Positions 1,511-10,226 of a DNA stretch of 13,805 nt are shown one piece after another (within the stretch, counting starts at the first letter, position 1; every line of letters begins with the position of its first letter). Under the pieces are notes generated by a model. That model was not told where the DNA came from. It did no database searches and was given only the letters and a program-made list of their open reading frames with translations. A program made the translations under genes and the position numbers. The DNA is from a virus (Duplodnaviria > Heunggongvirae > Uroviricota > Caudoviricetes), in the IMG/VR virus record IMGVR_UViG_2713896779_000020. The stretch is one strand, 5' to 3'.

Positions 1511-4236
1511 TCAAAAATCAGCCTGACTCGGGAGCAGTTTTTGCCAGATGGCTGAAACGTATTTCGCCTGGTAACGTGCATCGTTCAGAGCGTTATGGCG
1601 TTCACCTTCGAATGGAATAGTCGTTCTTGCGTCGAAATCCATCACCAGTCCCAGAGCAACCATCGTTCTTACATCGCGATCATTGGTGTAACGACATGGG
1701 CAGGGGATCCCCTGCCGTTCATATGAACGGCGTAAAATCACGTTGTCGAAAGTTGCACCGTTACCCCAGACCTGAACAAAAAATTCACCGGAGTTTTCGT
1801 CGATAAATTCCCGTAATTGCAGCAGTGCATCATCTAACGGGATTTCATCGGTAAGAATGGCGGATTGCGCTTCGCGTGACTGTTTCAGCCACCACTTAAT
1901 GGTGTCCCGATCAATGACTCCGCCAGCAGTTTCCAGATCGATAGTTTTGCTGAATTCTGGCCCCATCTCTCCGGTTTGCGGATCGAAAAATATTGCACCT
2001 ATTGAGATAATCGGGGCATCAGGATTTTTTCCCATTGTTTCAAGGTCAATCATCAGATGGTGCCACAACCTGCTGGTGGATGTAATTTCACGATGACCGT
2101 TCACCTTAATTAAGGGATTTGCTGTCTCGCCACTTTCATTATCTGTGGTGTGGTAGTGATCGCCGCCACTGCCTTCCATTTCCTCCTGAGCTTCAGCCTG
2201 ATTTTCTTCATCGAATGTTTCCTGGCAGGTTGCGTCGCCCATCACCGCGCCACAATCAGGGCAGTTGCCGCCACCACTCTGACCGCAGGCGGTACAGACT
2301 TTTTCCTCTTCCTGTTGCGCTACTGGTTCGGATTGTTTCGTTTCTGGCTCGTCTTGTAACGCATTTGGGCTGTTTTGTTCCGCTTTTTGGTCGTTCTGTT
2401 CCGTTTCTGACTGGTTCTGGTTCACAGAATCGCAGGTTTCAATCCCCTTCACCCATTTCGGATCATTCGGGTCGCTAATCCCTTCAACAAATTCACCACG
2501 TGATGCAGCAAGCAATTTATCGGCGTCAGGCTGGCTGATATTGGCTGCCTGCATAATTTTGTTTACTTCGTCAGCGGTAACTTTTACCGGCTCCGGTTGT
2601 ACGGAATCTTCAGCGGTATCCACATTTTGCGGTAAGTCCGTGTATGTTCCGTTTTTGCGGGCAAGATATTCTTCTTTCGTGATTTCAGTAGCCCCGGCAG
2701 CCAGCGCCTTGTCCAGACCAGAAAGTTTGTTTGCGCGACCGTATTTTTCGCCATCCTTGTCGGTGAAGAGGAANNNNNNNNNNNNNNNNNNNNNNNNNNN
2801 NNNNNNNNNNNNNNNNNNNNNNNGCTGATATTGGCTGCCTGCATAATTTTGTTTACTTCGTCAGCGGTAACTTTTACCGGCTCTGATTGTTCGGAATCTT
2901 CAGCGGTATCCACATTTTGCGGTAAGCCCGTGTATGTGCCATTTTTTCGGGCAAAATATTCTTCTTTTGAGATTTCGGTACCGCCGGCAGCCAGCGCCTT
3001 GTCCAGACCAGAAAGTTTGTTTGCCCTGCCGTATTTTTCCCCGCCCTTATCGGTAAAGACGAAATAAAATGGTCCTTCACGCTCTACAGATGGTTCAGCT
3101 TCCACCAGGATTTCATTTTTTTGAGTATCGGATTCTGCCGTCTCCACTGGAGCAGTTTGTGCTGCTGACGGCTGGAGAGCATCAGTAGAGCTCTGGTCTG
3201 TTTCTTCATGTTCAAACACGCCCTTTGTCGTCAGGTATTCACTGATATATTTGTTCAGTGCAACGGGATCTTTGTGAATATCGATCGGACGTTCGCGAAC
3301 AAGGCCAAAAATAGTCTGACGGTCATAGCCAAGTGCTTCGGGCTGTTTGCGCATTGATGCTGAGATACGCTTCCAGTCTTCGCGATCCTTGTCGATAACC
3401 TCATTTGTCGCCCAGCGATGGATGGTACCGTCAATGTTTCCTGCATCCACATCACCGGGCCAGAGGGCGCAGGCCAGTTCATTGTCGAGTGTTTTCCATG
3501 TCTGTTTGTATTCGCGGCGAATGGCAACAGTGACAGCCCCGGTTTTTTCAGCAGCGTTTTCAGTGTTCTGTTGGTTGACTCTGGCGCGGGTGAGATCAAC
3601 AACAGACGTGTATTTTCCGGTTTCCTTGCGTTCACCTTCGCGACGTTTTTTCCAGATGCGCATCTCTGCCTGAATTTCAGGCCATTTAGCGCCAGGCTCA
3701 CATTTATGCTTAACCCACCCGATGGCATGCAGTTTAAGTTCAGGATACATGGCGTTAACTTCTGGCATTTTCATCAACGCTTCAACGATATGTCCGCCGA
3801 ATGTTGCCATGTCTTCCTGTAGTAATTCCTGTGCGCTAATCACCATATCAACGGTGATGTTTTCGCATGTGTCGAATTTAACCAGGACTGCGTTCTGTAC
3901 TTCAGGGGACAGCTTGTCAAAATTGACGTTCATCGGATCGGATTCTGGTTCGACCGGTACAAAGGAAGCTGACTCCTCATCCCAGCGGTTTTCCTGCATA
4001 TATTCGGTATCCCAGGAATCGAGGGCAGGGCGGGGTATGCCGGGTTTATCCTCGCAGACAATAAATTTATAAGCGCAGTCCTGAGCTGCCGGGAATTGCT
4101 CCAGAAATTGCCAGTGAAATTTTGCGCGTGCGCGACGCTCATCACCGGCTTCAATGGCAGTGGCCACCGCAACAGCGCTATCTTCTTTTATGGCCTGTTC
4201 GTCAGGAATAGCAGCGCAAATAAAGATTTTACTCAT
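1511..4236 (-). CDS. Large phage exonuclease (annotated in related prophages as exodeoxyribonuclease VIII-like) with a C-terminal DEDD-type 3'-5' exonuclease domain; interrupted by a 50-N gap and a duplicated 240-bp segment
   Basis: The ORF-track pieces 2584-4236 and 1511-2623 share the peptide [30 protein letters not shown] in the two repeat copies. The C-terminal part shows the three DEDD motifs (MIDLETMG; [13 protein letters not shown]; [10 protein letters not shown]). If the two repeat copies are collapsed, the two pieces join in frame into one ORF of about 812 codons. The reading frame across the N-run cannot be verified. Confidence 0.6.
2534..3063. repeat. Imperfect 240-bp direct repeat (2534-2773 and 2824-3063) flanking the N-run
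   Basis: Both copies start GCTGATATTGGCTGCCTGCATAATTTTGTTTACTTCGTCAGCGG. Constant offset of 290 nt with no indels; by my hand count about 20 mismatches over 240 bp (roughly 90% identity). Confidence 0.9.
2774..2823. other. Run of 50 N (assembly or scaffold gap, or masked bases)
   Basis: Literal n characters in the sequence. Confidence 0.99.
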
Positions 4237-4329: not shown

Positions 4330-4521
4330 TTAAAGTCCTGCCGGTATTTCGTTATTATTAGTGTGAGTAGTTTTATCTACCGGATAACAGTTACCGGGAA
4401 TTTTTTGTTCTGCTGCTGCAGCCATGCATTCTTTCATTGAACCGTATAAGCCAGTCACCAGCTCAAGAGATTCGCCGGAAACAAGATAAACTGTCAGAAC
4501 GAGTGCAAATGTTGTATTCAT
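4330..4521 (-). CDS. ydfD: Small membrane protein, YdfD-like (DUF1482-type), 63 aa
   Basis: 63-aa ORF directly downstream of dicB with a hydrophobic N-terminal segment (FALVLTVYLVSG) and a C-terminal KIPGNCYPVDK...EIPAGL. The size and position match ydfD of the Qin dicB locus as I recall it. Confidence 0.6.
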   Translation of the reverse strand: MNTTFALVLTVYLVSGESLELVTGLYGSMKECMAAAAEQKIPGNCYPVDKTTHTNNNEIPAGL

Positions 4522-4706
4522 TGTTTATATCCTTTTTGCAGCAGGTCCAGACGAGCCAGCATTGAAGGAATGCATACTTCATTTAACAGGTCCTGCTCGA
4601 GTTTTCTCTGCTTAATGGCGTCTTCAATAAATGTTTTGTCTCCAGTGATAACGCCAATTTCGAAACGAAGTTCAGACGTGCTGGCATTACATGATAACTT
4701 TTCCAT
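4518..4706 (-). CDS. dicB: Cell-division inhibitor DicB homologue (62 aa)
   Basis: The internal-ATG product MEKLSCNASTSELRFEIGVITGDKTFIEDAIKQRKLEQDLLNEVCIPSMLARLDLLQKGYKQ is the same length as E. coli K-12 DicB and shares its blocks (FEIGV, TEDAI..RK, SMLARL) as recalled. GAGGA ribosome-binding site 5' of the ATG. The longer track ORF (to 4814) would run into the dicF region. Confidence 0.8.
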   Translation of the reverse strand: MEKLSCNASTSELRFEIGVITGDKTFIEDAIKQRKLEQDLLNEVCIPSMLARLDLLQKGYKQ

Positions 4707-4885
4707 TATCGCGTCCTCAACAATGAATTTTGTGATGCGGTGCCTGGTGCCTTCAGGTGACGTTAACCAGTTAACAATTAACGCCGGATACAGAGCATTC
4801 TCGTTACTCAGCAAATGACCGCTTTACCGATTTAACTGTTCCGCGTGCGCTGAGCCGCATTCACCGCATCACAAAATTCACTTTT

Positions 4886-4944
4886 AAAAAAGGGCGGCAG
4901 AGCAGTCACGGAGTAAAACTGATACCGCCAAATGTCACCAGAAT
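4886..4944 (-). ncRNA. dicF: DicF small RNA homologue with intrinsic terminator tail
   Basis: The minus strand reads ATTCTGGTGACATTTGGCGGTATCAGTTTTACTCCGTGACTGCTCTGCCGCCC followed by TTTTTT. This differs at only two positions from the 53-nt K-12 DicF sequence as I remember it, and it lies directly upstream of dicB as in Qin. Confidence 0.85.
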
Positions 4945-5279
4945 ATTGATAACAGAGGGCGTTGCAGCGGGGTTGTCACTTAAGCGTATGGTCAACCTGA
5001 CAACCCGGTGTCCTCAACGGGGAAAGAATAACCCCGCCATACTTACCGCCGCGCCATTTCGCGGATTGCCACAACCGGAAGCGCACGGTCGAATTAAATT
5101 TAACGACGGCTCTAAGGGAGAAGGACTTCGCCGTGCACTTTCGTGTTATGCCCTGACTTTTCAGGGATATATCCTTTCAGTAAACTGTCAGTGCCGGATT
5201 CTTATCTGTGTCCGGCGCACGACCACACGTAGCAGCGTGTTGGTCTCCATTTTTAATTCAGCCCTTAATGGAGGATAAA

Positions 5280-5465
5280 ATGCCAAACAAACCATGCCCT
5301 GCCTGTAACGCTCTTTCTGGCTTTTTAGAGAAGGGCGGTTATTACATTTTTAACTGTCCAGAACATGTTGAATTTCATATATCAAAACTTGACAGTATCA
5401 TTACAAAGCCAAATCAGTATCAGTCTGATTTACTGAATAAAGAGTTAAACGCCGCCCGAGATTAA
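5280..5465 (+). CDS. Small zinc-ribbon protein, Lar/RalR-like (restriction-alleviation family), 61 aa
   Basis: GGAGG ribosome-binding site 6 nt before the ATG at 5280. Product MPNKPCPACNALSGFLEKGGYYIFNCPEHVEF... has a C-x2-C ... GYY ... C-x2-H pattern resembling the KPCPFCG...GYY...C-x2-C arrangement of Rac RalR/Lar as recalled. It is on the opposite strand to the surrounding operon. Confidence 0.5.
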   Translation: MPNKPCPACNALSGFLEKGGYYIFNCPEHVEFHISKLDSIITKPNQYQSDLLNKELNAARD

Positions 5466-5502
5466 GGGCGTAGTGGCCCATTAAAAATATTGCAAAGACC
5501 AA

Positions 5503-6041
5503 CTATTGTTGAACTGGATTAAACCAGTAATTCTCTATTGCTCTTATTGTTACCATCGGATGATTGCCGGGGGTTATTTTAAGTTCGGGAGGAAAAGGCT
5601 CTCCATCAGCAGCCATCATTGAGTATGTGAAATCCGCCGACGCAGTCCCTTTCATGATAATTCCGAATTTTTCAAGTAATGAGAGCAGTTCCGGTAATCC
5701 TGTGTCATCTGAATAACTTTCCTCATAGAAAGAAGCGATTGCCGCAGGAGATGACAGTTCTCGCTCTGCAATTTTTTTGTAGTTTTCCAGAATTCTTTTT
5801 TTGAATACTTTTCCTCGACATGAAAACCCATCACCGAGGCAATCCGCTTTGCAGTTTCTTCAGTATTCTGGTTGTTTGTTACCGAAACAGAGTACAATCC
5901 GGTAAACGCATCGCGCACATTACGAGCCATATTATCAATGTATTTCTTCGTTGCAGATTCTAATTCAACTTCGTTCAGACGTTGGTGAAGTGCATGTGCT
6001 GCAATTTCCTGGATTTCTTTTAGTAAATCTTTAAATTCCAT
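5503..6041 (-). pseudogene. Hypothetical protein gene with a -1 frame change: the N-terminal frame (track ORF 5652-6041, 129 aa) continues in the -1 frame to a stop at 5503-5505; either a frameshift, a homopolymer sequencing error or programmed slippage
   Basis: GGAG ribosome-binding site before the ATG at 6041. After the A7 run (plus-strand T7 at 5796-5802) the annotated frame turns into low-quality sequence (LQSENCHLLRQSLLSMRKV...), while the -1 frame reads a protein-like 95 aa with no start codon (...KKRILENYKKIAERELSSPAAIASFYEESYSDDTGLPELLSLLEKFGII...NPVQQ*). Total span is 539 nt, consistent with one frame change. Confidence 0.5.
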
Positions 6042-6338: not shown

Positions 6339-6519
6339 GTTGACCTCATTTCCCCTTAACGCCGGGTAGCGGAACAAAAACCTGCTGCATAGTTATTAAA
6401 GTTGAACCCTGCCGTCATGTTCATACGCCTCGGGCTGGCTACTTACCCCCTGACCACTGCCTGGTAACTCGAAGTATTGCCCGGCGTTCTGTGGGGCGGG
6501 GTGGGTGGTTGGTGTATGT

Positions 6520-6562
6520 AATCTACAATTAAAAACTGTTTTGTGTCAACAGTTTTTAATTG
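6520..6562 (-). promoter_or_regulatory. Leftward early promoter (PL-like) with overlapping palindromic operator for the ydfA-ydfB-dicF-dicB operon
   Basis: Minus strand: -35 TTGACA (6549-6544), 18-bp spacer, -10 TAGATT (6525-6520). It is embedded in a perfect palindrome CAATTAAAAACTGTT-N7-AACAGTTTTTAATTG (6526-6562). Confidence 0.55.
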
Positions 6563-6573
6563 TTGTTTTGGGC

Positions 6574-6595
6574 AAAAAAATCCCTCGAAAGAGGG
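6574..6595 (-). terminator. Intrinsic terminator ending the repressor-antitoxin-toxin operon
   Basis: The minus strand reads CCCTC-TTTC-GAGGG followed by A-TTTTTTT, located 20-40 nt downstream of the parE-type stop. Confidence 0.5.
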
Positions 6596-6614
6596 AGTAT
6601 GAAAATTGTTCAAC

Positions 6615-6902
6615 TCAGATAGAGAAGGGAAATTGTCGCCGAGAATGTGTCACGCTTACAATCTCAATGCTTGAAGCAGCTACTCTGTACAGGATTATGT
6701 AGTTAGGGTGGGTCACGATCTCTCTCAATCCAGAAACCCGTTCGCTTGGTGGATATAAGTACGGATGCTCAGATAGAGGTAATACCGATGTTTCAATGCG
6801 TATTTTTAGTCTACGTGCTGCCGGTGGGTTCTCCTTGGCGATGTAAGTTATGATCTGGCGCAAATCATCGCGAGCAGACGGTAGCCATAAAATGGGTAAC
6901 AT
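6615..6902 (-). CDS. parE: Type II toxin, RelE/ParE family (ParE2-like), 95 aa
   Basis: MLPILWLPSARDDLRQIITYIAKENPPAARRLKIRIETSVLPLSEHPYLYPPSERVSGLREIVTHPNYIILYRV... fits the ParE pattern as recalled. The start overlaps the antitoxin stop (TAATG). Confidence 0.7.
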   Translation of the reverse strand: MLPILWLPSARDDLRQIITYIAKENPPAARRLKIRIETSVLPLSEHPYLYPPSERVSGLREIVTHPNYIILYRVAASSIEIVSVTHSRRQFPFSI

Positions 6903-7093
6903 TACTCGCTCTTGTTAGTTACAGCAATTTGAGCAATAAGATTTTCCATTTCAGCCATTACCTCGTCATGTGGAATTGCGGGGCGAGTGTCTGCAAGGCT
7001 TGACGTTACTTTAGTGCGCAACCATTCGTTGTAACTGTTTTCTTGTTCGGTAGTTTCGAATTCTGAAACTATCGGAGAAAGGGCTGTACCCAT
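6902..7093 (-). CDS. paaA2: Antitoxin, PaaA2-like (ParE-associated antitoxin), 63 aa
   Basis: MGTALSPIVSEFETTEQENSYNEWLRTKVTSSLADTRPAIPHDEV... closely matches the PaaA2 sequence of E. coli O157 as I recall it (ALSPMVSEFETIEQENSYNEWLRAKV..SLAD.RPAIPHDEV). GAGGAG ribosome-binding site; immediately upstream of the toxin. Confidence 0.65.
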   Translation of the reverse strand: MGTALSPIVSEFETTEQENSYNEWLRTKVTSSLADTRPAIPHDEVMAEMENLIAQIAVTNKSE

Positions 7094-7120: not shown

Positions 7121-7522
7121 TCACGCCCGGCGGCTTTTTTGTGCCGCCAGCCACCTAGCAATGGTTTCTTCCATTGATTTTTTCTTGTCTTTGATTTCTT
7201 GAAGCATTTTTTCTTGGTCTTCCTCAGGAAACGCACTAAAAGCTTGGAGCAGTTCGCGTTGGCGAGGACCAATTTTCATCGTGTCAGGGGTGAAAATTTG
7301 CTCACACTCTTCAGGAGGCAATAAAAACCAATGCAATGGATGCCCTGAAACCTCAACCAGTTTATCCAAACTTGAGGCTTTAGGTGTAGCCTTACCGCTG
7401 ACCCATTGTTGAACAGTTTGTTGTGTCACACCAATTCTACGGGCAAGCTCAGCCTGGCTCCATCCAGTTTCCTGAAGAAGCTTGCTGATTCTGTACATAG
7501 ATACTTCTAGGGCGCTCATCAT
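7121..7522 (-). CDS. HTH_XRE transcriptional regulator, DicA/PaaR2-like; candidate prophage repressor
   Basis: Helix-turn-helix SQAELARRIGVTQQTVQQWVSGK near the N-terminus. First gene of the operon with the antitoxin and toxin, and divergent from the cro-like gene. The start is ambiguous: 7522 (MMSALEV...) or the internal ATG at 7498 (MYRISKLLQETGW...), the latter giving a more typical HTH N-terminus. Confidence 0.7.
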   Translation of the reverse strand: MMSALEVSMYRISKLLQETGWSQAELARRIGVTQQTVQQWVSGKATPKASSLDKLVEVSGHPLHWFLLPPEECEQIFTPDTMKIGPRQRELLQAFSAFPEEDQEKMLQEIKDKKKSMEETIARWLAAQKSRRA

Positions 7523-8941: not shown

Positions 8942-10226
8942 ATGAGCCTGATAAAGGCTTTTCAAAAAATACATGTCGAACCTCCTCTGGTTCTGTCGAT
9001 TGGGAACCACAGATTATATCCGGAGGAAGGTTCGGCACCAGATGAGGTAGCCATGCGTGATTACGCAAAAGTTTCTCCGCGATTCTGGCTGGGAGAAACG
9101 GGGAGAGAACTTAGAAAGGCGGGTGCAGAAGCGCAAGTTGTTGCTTTTTACCTGATGACATCCCCTCACGCAAATATGCTGGGTTTGTATTACCTGCCAG
9201 TTTTATACCTTGCTCATGAAACCGGGCTTGGTCTGGAAGGGGCTTCAAAGGGGCTTAAAAGGGCTGTTGAAGCTGGTTTTTGTAGCTATGACCATGATGC
9301 AGAGATGGTCTGGGTCCATGAAATGGCAGCCTGGCAGGTTGGGGAAACGTTGAAGCCTGGCGATAACCGTTGTGCAGGTGTCAGGAATGAGTATGCATCA
9401 TTACCTGAAAACGCTTTTCTGTCAGTGTTTTACGACAGATATAAAACGGATTTCCATCTGGATGTGAGGCGGAATAATAGCCGAAATTCGGTAAGGGGCT
9501 TCGAAGGGGCTTTTAAGGGGCTTCGAAGCCAAGAACAGGAACAGGAGCAGGAGAAAGAACAGGAACAGGACAAAAACACTATGGTTCATGGCAAAAAAAA
9601 CACCACGAACCAGGCAGGGGATGTTCAGACCGTCAATCCTGGTCAGCCAGCAGGCACGACACCGNNNNNNNNNNNNNNNNNNNNNNNNNNNNNNNNNNNN
9701 NNNNNNNNNNNNNNAAGCCGATTCAGCGTATGCGCTGAAAGCCGATTCGGGCGCTGTGCAGCAGGTGATGACCGCAGGGTCGGAGCAATCACACCAACTG
9801 CAGCAGCCTGAAGCCGATTCCGCCATTCAGCGGGAAGCCGATCGGGTAGTCCCGGAAAGCACCGGGCAGTCTGTGGGACGAGTGGATTATCCGGATGTGT
9901 TCGAACAGGTCTGGCGGGAATACCCGTTGCGTGCTGGGGCAAACCCGAAGAAATCCGCTTTCAGTGCCTGGAAGGCCAGATTGCGCGAGGGGGTGCCACC
10001 AGAGACCATGCTGGATGGTGTGAGGCGTTACGCGAGATACCTGGCGGCGACCGGGAAAGCGGGAACGGAATTTGTTCAGCGAGCGACGACGTTTTTTGGG
10101 CCGGACCGGAATTTTGAAAACCCCTGGTTGCTCCCGGTAAGCGGCACGAACAACCAGCGTTGTGTGAATCATATTTCTGAACCGGATACCGAAATTCCGC
10201 CGGGATTCAGGGGTGATGTGGCATGA
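8942..10226 (+). CDS. Replication-initiation (O-like / YdaU-type) protein with a low-complexity linker; interrupted by a 50-N run
   Basis: Track ORFs 8942-9811 and 9588-10226 are each protein-like only on their own side of the gap (N-terminal part before it, C-terminal part ...DYPDVFEQVWREYPLRAGANPKKSAFSAWKARL... after it). The stop overlaps the start of the DnaC-like gene (ATGA). Single-gene status across the gap is an inference. Confidence 0.5.
9237..9523 (+). repeat. Two clusters of three phased direct repeats AAGGGGCTT (11-bp period) inside the replication gene; candidate iterons
   Basis: Cluster 1 copies start at 9237, 9248 and 9259 (the third is degenerate). Cluster 2 copies start at 9493, 9504 and 9515. 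Confidence 0.6.
9665..9714. other. Run of 50 N (assembly or scaffold gap, or masked bases) inside the replication gene
   Basis: Literal n characters. The flanks are repeat-rich: (GAACAG)n at 9531-9572 and AAGCCGATTC-type repeats at 9715-9844. Confidence 0.99.

Follow-up and report, generated by a model that had tools for sequence, protein, structure and literature searches.

A truncated gene for a predicted zinc-ribbon protein lies antisense to a prophage dicF-dicB operon, at a sieB-like position beside the known DicF precursor

Introduction

DicF and DicB are the best-studied prophage-encoded regulators of division, metabolism and, in enterohaemorrhagic Escherichia coli (EHEC), virulence in E. 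coli, and the dicBF operon that encodes them is usually drawn as a simple one-strand unit. The precursor of the DicF small RNA (sRNA) was reportedly described by Faubladier in 1990. SieB, encoded on the opposite strand of related early-left operons, is membrane-associated, and the sas RNA that is antisense to its gene is said, in the original work on P22, to be processed from the pL transcript. Here, a locus of this kind is analysed in a window of 13,805 nucleotides (nt), the whole stretch of viral DNA considered (IMG/VR record IMGVR_UViG_2713896779_000020, Caudoviricetes), in which a small plus-strand gene for a predicted zinc-ribbon protein (5280-5465) lies within the minus-strand dicF-dicB operon, next to a structured leader.

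In K-12, the ydfC-dicF spacer is the 3' untranslated region of ydfC, and DicF is cut out of a transcript started at dicBp, in which RNase III cleavage yields a 190-nt species and RNase E cleavage the 53-nt form, each enzyme setting the 5' end of its product (PMC10448788; PMC9438474); the precursor has been described by Ragunathan in 2023 (PMC10448788). In P22, the sas antisense RNA controls the translation of sieB/esc (PMC12197685). Compared with these systems, the locus of the window probably consists of two separate elements placed side by side, namely the DicF precursor on the minus strand and, on the plus strand, an accessory cassette at the position of sieB.

Position and orientation of the gene

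The features on which the argument turns are the following, in coordinates of the window.

4518-4706, minus strand: dicB (Pfam PF05358, 131.8 bits)
4892-4943, minus strand: DicF sRNA gene (Rfam RF00039, full model 1-52; 77 bits, gathering score 48, E 6e-16)
4944-5223, minus strand: DicF precursor leader, by homology (90.7% identity to the K-12 spacer; fold z = -2.85)
5070-5150, minus strand: 22-bp stem with the inferred RNase III site (paired in 9 sequences; the 5' end of the K-12 190-nt species maps here)
5158-5186, plus strand: weak candidate promoter (TTTTCA-N17-TAAACT, 8/12 matches, read from the sequence)
5193-5274, plus strand: three-hairpin 5' region (fold z = -3.5 in the window; stems conserved in 8 distinct sequences)
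5280-5465, plus strand: zinc-ribbon open reading frame (ORF), truncated allele of a gene for 80 amino acids (aa) (phrog_10133, E 7e-48; TAA at 5463-5465)
5466-5522, plus strand: remnant made of the last 18 codons and the original stop, in frame (translation equal to the intact C-terminus)
5503-6041, minus strand: frameshifted convergent partner gene (matches loci L004 and L003 in different frames)

The plus-strand ORF has 61 codons and is preceded by the Shine-Dalgarno (SD) sequence GGAGG at 5270-5274, 5 nt before the ATG. In E. coli O103:H2 12009, whose locus is identical, RefSeq lists its product as the hypothetical protein WP_001133046.1 and annotates, on the minus strand, a CI-like repressor, RelB, RelE, a DUF1391 protein (YdfA family), YdfB, a 129-aa hypothetical protein, DicB, a DUF1482 protein (YdfD family), an exonuclease and an integrase. 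Since all the neighbours from the repressor to the integrase are on the minus strand, the zinc-ribbon ORF, the single gene on the plus strand, is convergent with and antisense to the operon, so that the coordinates and the strands of the neighbours bear out what a first-pass annotation of this DNA had stated about the orientation of the gene relative to dicF-dicB.

Plus-strand genes inside minus-strand early-left operons are likewise found in Rac, lambda and P22, always as sieB. In Rac, racR, ydaG and ydaF (DUF1391) are followed by kilS and kilR in the same orientation, and sieB stands between ydaF and kilS in the opposite one; lambda sieB converges with N, and P22 sieB/esc, for which a promoter and a start site are annotated, converges with gene 24. 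The window is laid out in the same way, the zinc-ribbon gene standing where sieB would be and dicF-dicB where kilS-kilR would be. Moreover, the segment TGCGC.TTCGTGTTGTGC.CCTG..TTTT.ACCAC..CAGGC..GGTGGT, which lies just upstream of sieB in P22 and Rac, aligns with the leader of the window, whose copy has an internal deletion, and with the DNA that precedes both the zinc-ribbon gene of L013 (a distant lambdoid prophage, Logan SRR14430920) and the 66-aa plus-strand gene of L010. Judged from the layout and these alignments, the site of the zinc-ribbon gene is homologous to the sieB site of P22, lambda and Rac. No homology to the SieB protein itself was found, the zinc-ribbon protein having no match in Pfam, NCBIfam or PADLOC. 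The site also accommodates unrelated plus-strand genes in other dicBF prophages, each with its own PHROG family.

L005: plus-strand gene of 69 aa, phrog_4274
L006: plus-strand ORF of 104 aa, phrog_8894
L007 and L010: plus-strand gene of 66 aa, phrog_34441
K-12: no plus-strand gene at the site

Conservation and truncation of the zinc-ribbon gene

The 61-aa sequence falls in phrog_10133, an uncharacterised phage family, with residues 1-61 on profile positions 5-65, and the same profile is matched at E 3e-15 by its distant member P0005. A search of PDB sequences returned only a chance-level zinc-finger match (E 0.24), tblastn against phage GenBank records gave no significant match, and no similarity was found to YdaE, the zinc-binding protein of Rac. 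A word-indexed protein search retrieved five clusters at 90% identity among 5.8 billion, and an exhaustive search of 1.8 billion representatives added one genuine distant relative, P0005, and two long repetitive proteins (11 and 8 matched stretches). The homologues thus comprise close relatives in E. coli and Salmonella, a subtype that is 68-70% identical (L003, P0007, P0008) and P0005 (91 aa, 42-48% identical), whose gene is likewise antisense in a distant lambdoid prophage.

Such a narrow distribution (five clusters and one distant relative), together with the lack of a Pfam family, is what would be expected if the plus-strand ORF were a chance frame and its conservation reflected only an RNA or the operon strand. 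However, the pairwise ratio of nonsynonymous to synonymous substitution rates (dN/dS) is 0.114 against L004 and 0.178 against L003, and the differences fall mostly at third codon positions; a chance ORF is therefore taken as excluded and retains only a vanishing probability. The reading frame stays open for 80-91 codons in sequences with 72% nucleotide identity and is also preserved in the 42-48% identical homologue, the four putative metal ligands are invariant, the SD sequence is strong and there is no sizeable ORF on the opposite strand. By these measures the family is under purifying selection, and the annotation of the 61-aa frame as a genuine gene, with homologues in other prophages, stands.

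Conversely, the ORF of the window is not the complete gene. All the intact members of phrog_10133 have 80-91 aa, and the TAA at 5463-5465 replaces, at codon 62, a codon that specifies serine in the intact alleles; the 18 codons beyond it continue in frame to the original stop (5520-5522), and their translation, GRSGPLKILQRPTIVELD*, is identical to the C-terminus of the intact P0002 and L035. The window carries a 61-aa truncated allele of a gene that encodes 80 aa, and this truncation is widespread: at least 1000 contigs carry the exact 61-aa sequence, and the 20 genomes listed in one search, as well as 19 of the 20 best listed in another, have a 100% identical locus, O157:H7, O103, O121 and O45 strains among them. 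Intact alleles occur, for example, in E. coli A19 (NZ_CP028756), ETEC4079 (NZ_CP122643) and UMNF18.

The 80-aa product is laid out as an N-terminal CPxC...CPxH predicted zinc ribbon, a helix and a conserved tail. The zinc ribbon proposed in the first-pass annotation is plausible in that C6, C9, C26 and H29 are invariant in all family members; the zinc-ribbon models of Pfam give weak, sub-threshold matches only (E 0.02-0.5). In the AlphaFold model, whose predicted local distance difference test (pLDDT) score is 67, four beta strands surround these four residues (pLDDT about 80) and are followed by a helix and a poorly predicted tail.

The same annotation had assigned the protein to Lar/RalR, and this assignment fails. 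It would make the 61-aa protein a DNase toxin or a restriction alleviator, with an antisense RNA from the operon or its leader as the antitoxin of a type I-like system. In its favour, the N-terminal motif KPCPxC-(10/11)-GYYxxxC is common to RalR, with which BLASTP finds a 19-column alignment around KPCPxC (pairwise E 0.014) and to whose relatives hhalign aligns 25 columns (KPCPxC...GYYxxxC) at 56% probability, and RalR is itself the product of a Rac early-left gene with an antisense sRNA, RalA. Nevertheless, in a profile check, six family members gave no match to PF14354 (Lar_restr_allev) at E <= 10 and the 61-aa and 85-aa forms gave none at E <= 1, whereas K-12 RalR, the positive control, matches PF14354 with 53.5 bits (cut-off 28.6); NCBIfam, a library with named RalR toxins, is equally silent on the zinc-ribbon protein. 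Furthermore, this family has CxxH as its second knuckle, where RalR has CxxC, and lacks the RWN[KR]R helix that seven of the eight aligned relatives of RalR possess. Rac ralR is also co-oriented with its operon, unlike the window gene; the allele that is widespread is the truncated one, and nothing in the sequence stands out as a separate antisense sRNA gene. The resemblance to RalR thus appears real but confined to half a zinc ribbon (the first 25 residues); on sequence criteria the family is not a demonstrable Lar/RalR relative, and a toxin or alleviator of this type is highly improbable.

The leader as the DicF precursor

The 335-nt spacer between dicF and the gene (4945-5279) had been described as free of ORFs on the operon strand and as containing several GC-rich stem-loops, and both descriptions are accurate. 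The only operon-strand ORFs are a 36-aa GTG frame (4976-5086) and a 35-aa ATG frame (5188-5295), both unsupported, so that the statement is true for anything substantial. The three hairpins that had been singled out, GGTTGTCA/TGACAACC (4971-4978/4998-5005), CGGGG/CCCCG (5018-5022/5032-5036) and CCCTGA/TCAGGG (5151-5156/5161-5166), are all part of the fold predicted for the operon-sense RNA, and this 401-nt RNA folds better than 100 of 100 shuffled sequences. The leader is therefore structured, as the annotation held; it is not a new element. Positions 4860-5221 are 90.7% identical to the ydfC-dicF spacer of K-12 Qin, and this homology identifies 4944-5223 on the minus strand as the known DicF precursor leader. 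Both marks of a DicF precursor, the Rfam covariance-model match and an upstream leader with the RNase III stem, are found here, no other Rfam RNA family was detected in the leader, and no DicF-like match was found near P22 sieB.

Counting 190 nt back from the annotated 3' end of K-12 DicF leads to CGACCGTGCG^CTTCCGG, and the identical sequence in the window places the RNase III cut, by homology, at 5081, within the 3' arm of a 22-bp stem. In the RNAalifold prediction from nine diverged loci, 5127-5150 pairs with 5070-5093, a segment that contains 5081. This stem is kept in all nine sequences with 98.5% of the cells paired, the unpaired cells being one at pair columns 179/226 and two at the terminal pair 183/221. 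One-sided changes, the only kind seen, affect nine of the 22 pairs, in eight of which every changed cell is still a standard pair; of the 12 cells changed in this way, 11 remain standard pairs, mostly through changes to or from G.U. The minus-strand RNA can accommodate these, whereas a plus-strand RNA would have A.C mismatches in their place. Across the nine aligned loci no double compensatory change was found, and the support for the stem is therefore conserved pairing and not covariation.

Two alternative readings of the leader were discarded. A GAAA-loop hairpin at 5135-5144 was rejected for the long-range 22-bp stem, which RNAalifold predicts and which all nine sequences keep. A TTG ORF of 110 aa on the plus strand (4946-5278), antisense to the leader, has no family match in Pfam, PHROG or NCBIfam and is reduced to 57 aa in L007 and L010, and the substitutions fit pairing in the minus-strand RNA. 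This ORF spans the whole leader and ends two bases before the ATG of the zinc-ribbon gene; in ETEC4079, the Prokaryotic Genome Annotation Pipeline (PGAP) fuses part of it to the zinc-ribbon gene in a 135-aa call.

Related elements occur in other prophages. At the position of dicF in L003 (1147-1260), L004 (1139-1260) and L006 (1150-1260), the leader and the terminator are kept and the DicF seed sequence is different; Rfam does not detect DicF in them at the gathering score, and they may be sRNA alleles with other targets. The kilS-sieB interval of K-12 Rac (L018, 606-872) shares the plan of the dicF leader, with an sRNA with a terminator hairpin, a long stem GGAGGCGCA...TGCGCCTTC and an ACCAC/GGTGG hairpin, which suggests, by analogy, that KilS may be processed like DicF.

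The shared 5' region of the plus-strand genes

The sequence in front of the zinc-ribbon gene is not specific to it. The window, L003, L004, L005 and L006 have everything in common through the SD sequence (TGGAGGATAAAATG) and the start codon, and the identity extends to the Met-Pro codons in the window, L003, L004 and L005 (not in L006) and to the Asn-Lys codons in the window, L004 and L005; the otherwise unrelated cargo genes of phrog_4274 and phrog_8894 thus share their SD and start region with the window gene. In the plus-strand RNA this region is predicted to form three hairpins, at 5193-5199/5210-5216, 5221-5229/5236-5245 and 5246-5251/5267-5272, of which the first has a U.G pair that would not form on the opposite strand and the third pairs an anti-SD sequence, UCCAUU, with AAUGGA and covers part of the SD sequence. 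Four variants are predicted to fold into the hairpins (z = -2.0 to -4.2, the lowest value being that of the L013 copy), three of them with the anti-SD/SD pairing. Among the eight distinct sequences, the stems are fixed and the loops vary in sequence and length, and hairpin 2 is exchanged for a different stem (CUCCAC/GUGGAG) in K-12, L011 and L013.

The cassette is kept in L013 even though the neighbouring proteins are at most 48% identical: its first 31 nt (5192-5222 of the window) are about 90% identical, and the SD and start sequence TGGAGGrTAAAATG is preserved. The same prophage carries the three-hairpin cassette again at 6468-6751, before a second plus-strand gene (65 aa, 6554-6751) that sits one gene further up the early-left operon than the L013 zinc-ribbon gene.

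A scan for promoters and terminators found no plus-strand promoter upstream of the gene at its threshold. The -10 hexamer of the best candidate, TAAACT, is also the hexamer within the annotated PsieB region of P22.

The convergent partner gene and the fate of the pair

The operon gene that converges with the zinc-ribbon gene encodes, where intact (L003, L004, L035), a protein of 178-193 aa, whose N-terminal domain (MEFKDL...) is common to all cargo types and whose C-terminal domain differs with the cargo. In the window it is split into an ORF of 129 aa (5652-6041) and an ORF of 50 aa (5503-5655), which are one gene elsewhere: the A-run at 5772-5778 is one A short, with 7 A where L004 and L035 have 8, and the frame that matches L004 and L003 is not the same for the N-terminal part as for the C-terminal part. 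RefSeq carries the 129-aa product as a hypothetical protein without a pseudogene flag and leaves the 50-aa remainder unannotated. The 3' end of the partner overlaps the zinc-ribbon gene by 20-44 nt, and by 20 nt in the window if the ancestral end of the latter is considered. In L013, a 135-aa protein consists of the same C-domain alone, at 36% identity, with an overlap of 119 nt. The C-terminal part has no match in Pfam, PHROG, PADLOC or PDB.

The zinc-ribbon gene and the partner C-domain were always inherited together in the loci examined. In IMG/VR, the search with the zinc-ribbon family and that with the C-domain each returned 14 contigs, the same 14 in both cases. Both genes are broken, by the nonsense codon and the frameshift, in the window, in eight window-type IMG/VR loci and in L036, and both are intact in L003, L004, L035, L037 and six L003-type IMG/VR loci.

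With both partners damaged (a nonsense mutation at codon 62 and a -1 frameshift), the window copy is therefore probably a partly or wholly inactivated remnant, and the odds that it has lost its function are about even. In the extreme form of this explanation, which is a serious contender albeit somewhat short of an even chance, the copy is dead, neither product works, and the region is only a transcribed spacer before the DicF precursor. Such an interpretation accounts for the TAA, which removes a tail (SG...RP.VE) conserved down to the 42-48% identical homologue, for the frameshift in the partner and for K-12 Qin, which lost the gene altogether and still makes DicF. It is countered by the truncated allele itself, which keeps the predicted zinc ribbon and the helix and lacks a tail that is the low-confidence part of the model, by the spread of the 61-aa sequence over at least 1000 contigs with an identical locus across the listed genomes and no further decay, and by the 50-aa ORF, whose own ATG overlaps the upstream stop (ATGA), so that the C-terminal fragment could be translated.

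The strict pairing also raises the possibility of a cognate two-protein module, in which a zinc-ribbon protein expressed in the lysogen and the C-domain of a partner expressed from the operon would act as toxin and antidote, or as exclusion and escape factors in the manner of SieB and Esc, and which prophages would exchange as a cassette. At least four cargo types, the phrog_4274/2151 and phrog_34441/33007 modules among them, have the same layout, with a conserved N-domain, a variable C-domain and a variable convergent small gene; the pair is kept in L013 at 36% and 42-48% identity; and in the two concordant IMG/VR searches the genes are intact together or broken together. On the other hand, PADLOC and Pfam gave no match to a defence or toxin family, recombination at the conserved flanks would also lead to co-inheritance, and only three diverged lineages of this pair are known, so that the module is an unlikely, if attractive, explanation. 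Its generalisation is comparably speculative and doubtful: the sieB position of dicBF-type and related lambdoid prophages would be a swap site for cognate two-gene modules, where a small protein expressed in lysogeny and the variable C-domain of the convergent early-left gene may act on each other, and where the shared, SD-sequestering 5' RNA cassette may be read out by the antisense operon transcript. If this were true, the zinc-ribbon/C-domain pair would be a new exclusion or defence module, inactivated in the sampled EHEC lineage.

Other features of the window

A RelE/ParE toxin and RelB antitoxin pair (6615-7093, minus strand) lies between the CI-like repressor (7121-7522) and the early-left operon, where rexAB is in lambda, and is likely an accessory module expressed in lysogeny. 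The spacer between dicF and dicB (4729-4878, minus strand) has a sub-threshold match to STnc100 (29 bits, gathering score 47) and is 76% identical to the kilS-kilR spacer of Rac and 71% identical to L013 4545-4709; it appears to be a conserved, unexplained element upstream of division-inhibitor genes. Lastly, the window contains two masked runs of exactly 50 N (2774-2823 and 9665-9714), the first of which is inside the exonuclease gene (1765-4236, minus strand) and appears as X in its translation.

A model of the locus

The arrangement of two adjacent elements that we favour builds on points that are established, namely the reality and truncation of the gene, the limits of its family, the homology of the slot, the shared 5' region, the co-occurrence with the partner and the identity of the leader, and we infer from them the promoter, the timing of expression, the antisense control and the function of the protein. 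In this model, the repressor-controlled early-left transcript would comprise ydfA, ydfB, the partner gene, the leader, dicF and dicB, and its leader would fold into the hairpins and the 22-bp stem; by homology with K-12, RNase III would cut this stem to give the 190-nt DicF species and RNase E would trim it to 53 nt. On the other strand, 5193-5522 would be an accessory cassette, made of the three-hairpin 5' region, whose last hairpin would partly sequester the SD sequence, followed by the gene for the 80-residue protein. As long as the prophage is repressed, the plus-strand mRNA could be made. When the operon is derepressed, its transcript would run antisense through the whole zinc-ribbon gene and its 5' region, and the gene would be silenced by colliding transcription and by RNA duplexes, as sieB of P22 is by the sas RNA.

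Several observations weigh against this model. The best promoter candidate is weak (8/12) and below the threshold of the scan, and the fold searches, made with a model of modest confidence, gave no significant match. The stems of the 5' hairpins are almost invariant and show no compensatory change, hairpin 2 being only replaced as a whole, and the structures are nearly symmetric between the strands and could serve the operon RNA instead. Moreover, the broken copies are near-clonal (99.9% identical) and therefore count as one event and not as repeated co-loss, and the co-occurrence of the zinc-ribbon gene with the C-domain could reflect mosaic exchange bounded by conserved flanks.

The leader was thus already known, and the zinc-ribbon gene was annotated but uncharacterised; with respect to the first-pass annotation, the gene is not that of a RalR-like toxin and the leader already had an explanation. 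In the literature searched, no link between an antisense gene and the dicBF operon was found, and the homology of the sieB slot, the multiple cargo behind a common 5' region and the strict pairing with the partner domain are not described there. Many natural dicBF operons, those of O157:H7, O103, O121 and O45 included, carry an opposite-strand gene directly upstream of the DicF precursor; if the zinc-ribbon gene is transcribed in lysogens, convergent transcription could alter the amounts of DicF and DicB, and the gene could itself be influenced by the operon. In addition, the gene pairs that vary at the sieB site are candidates for new superinfection-exclusion or toxin-antidote modules.

Comparison with known systems

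RalR of Rac resembles the zinc-ribbon protein as a small prophage early-region protein with an N-terminal KPCPxC...GYYxxxC half, and its gene is regulated via the antisense sRNA RalA. The two differ in the family model PF14354, unmatched by the zinc-ribbon protein, in the second knuckle and in the missing RWN[KR]R helix; furthermore, ralR is co-oriented with its operon and has a separate antisense sRNA, whereas the window gene is opposite to its operon.

Prophage accessory loci expressed in lysogeny, or "morons", are similar in being small, variable and independently oriented cargo set between conserved modules of the phage, at a site that holds unrelated genes in related prophages; in contrast to them, the zinc-ribbon gene has a structured 5' region in common with other cargo and is tied to a domain of the neighbouring gene. 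The dicBF region of K-12 Qin has the same leader element (90.7%), the same stem with the RNase III site, DicF and the terminator, whereas its leader follows directly after ydfC without a plus-strand gene, and it retains no more of the plus-strand 5' region than the first two hairpins.

The SieB proteins of the Rac, lambda and P22 records differ from the zinc-ribbon protein in size, with 162-192 aa against 80 aa of a soluble-looking predicted zinc ribbon, and no internal esc-like start is evident in the zinc-ribbon gene. The likeness lies in the locus: like sieB, the gene is transcribed against a pL-type operon, is convergent with an upstream operon gene, stands before a division-inhibitor block of the kil/dicB type and is preceded by homologous DNA. 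Among known systems, sieB/esc with sas, rather than RalR-RalA, is the closest precedent for the antisense control proposed at this locus.

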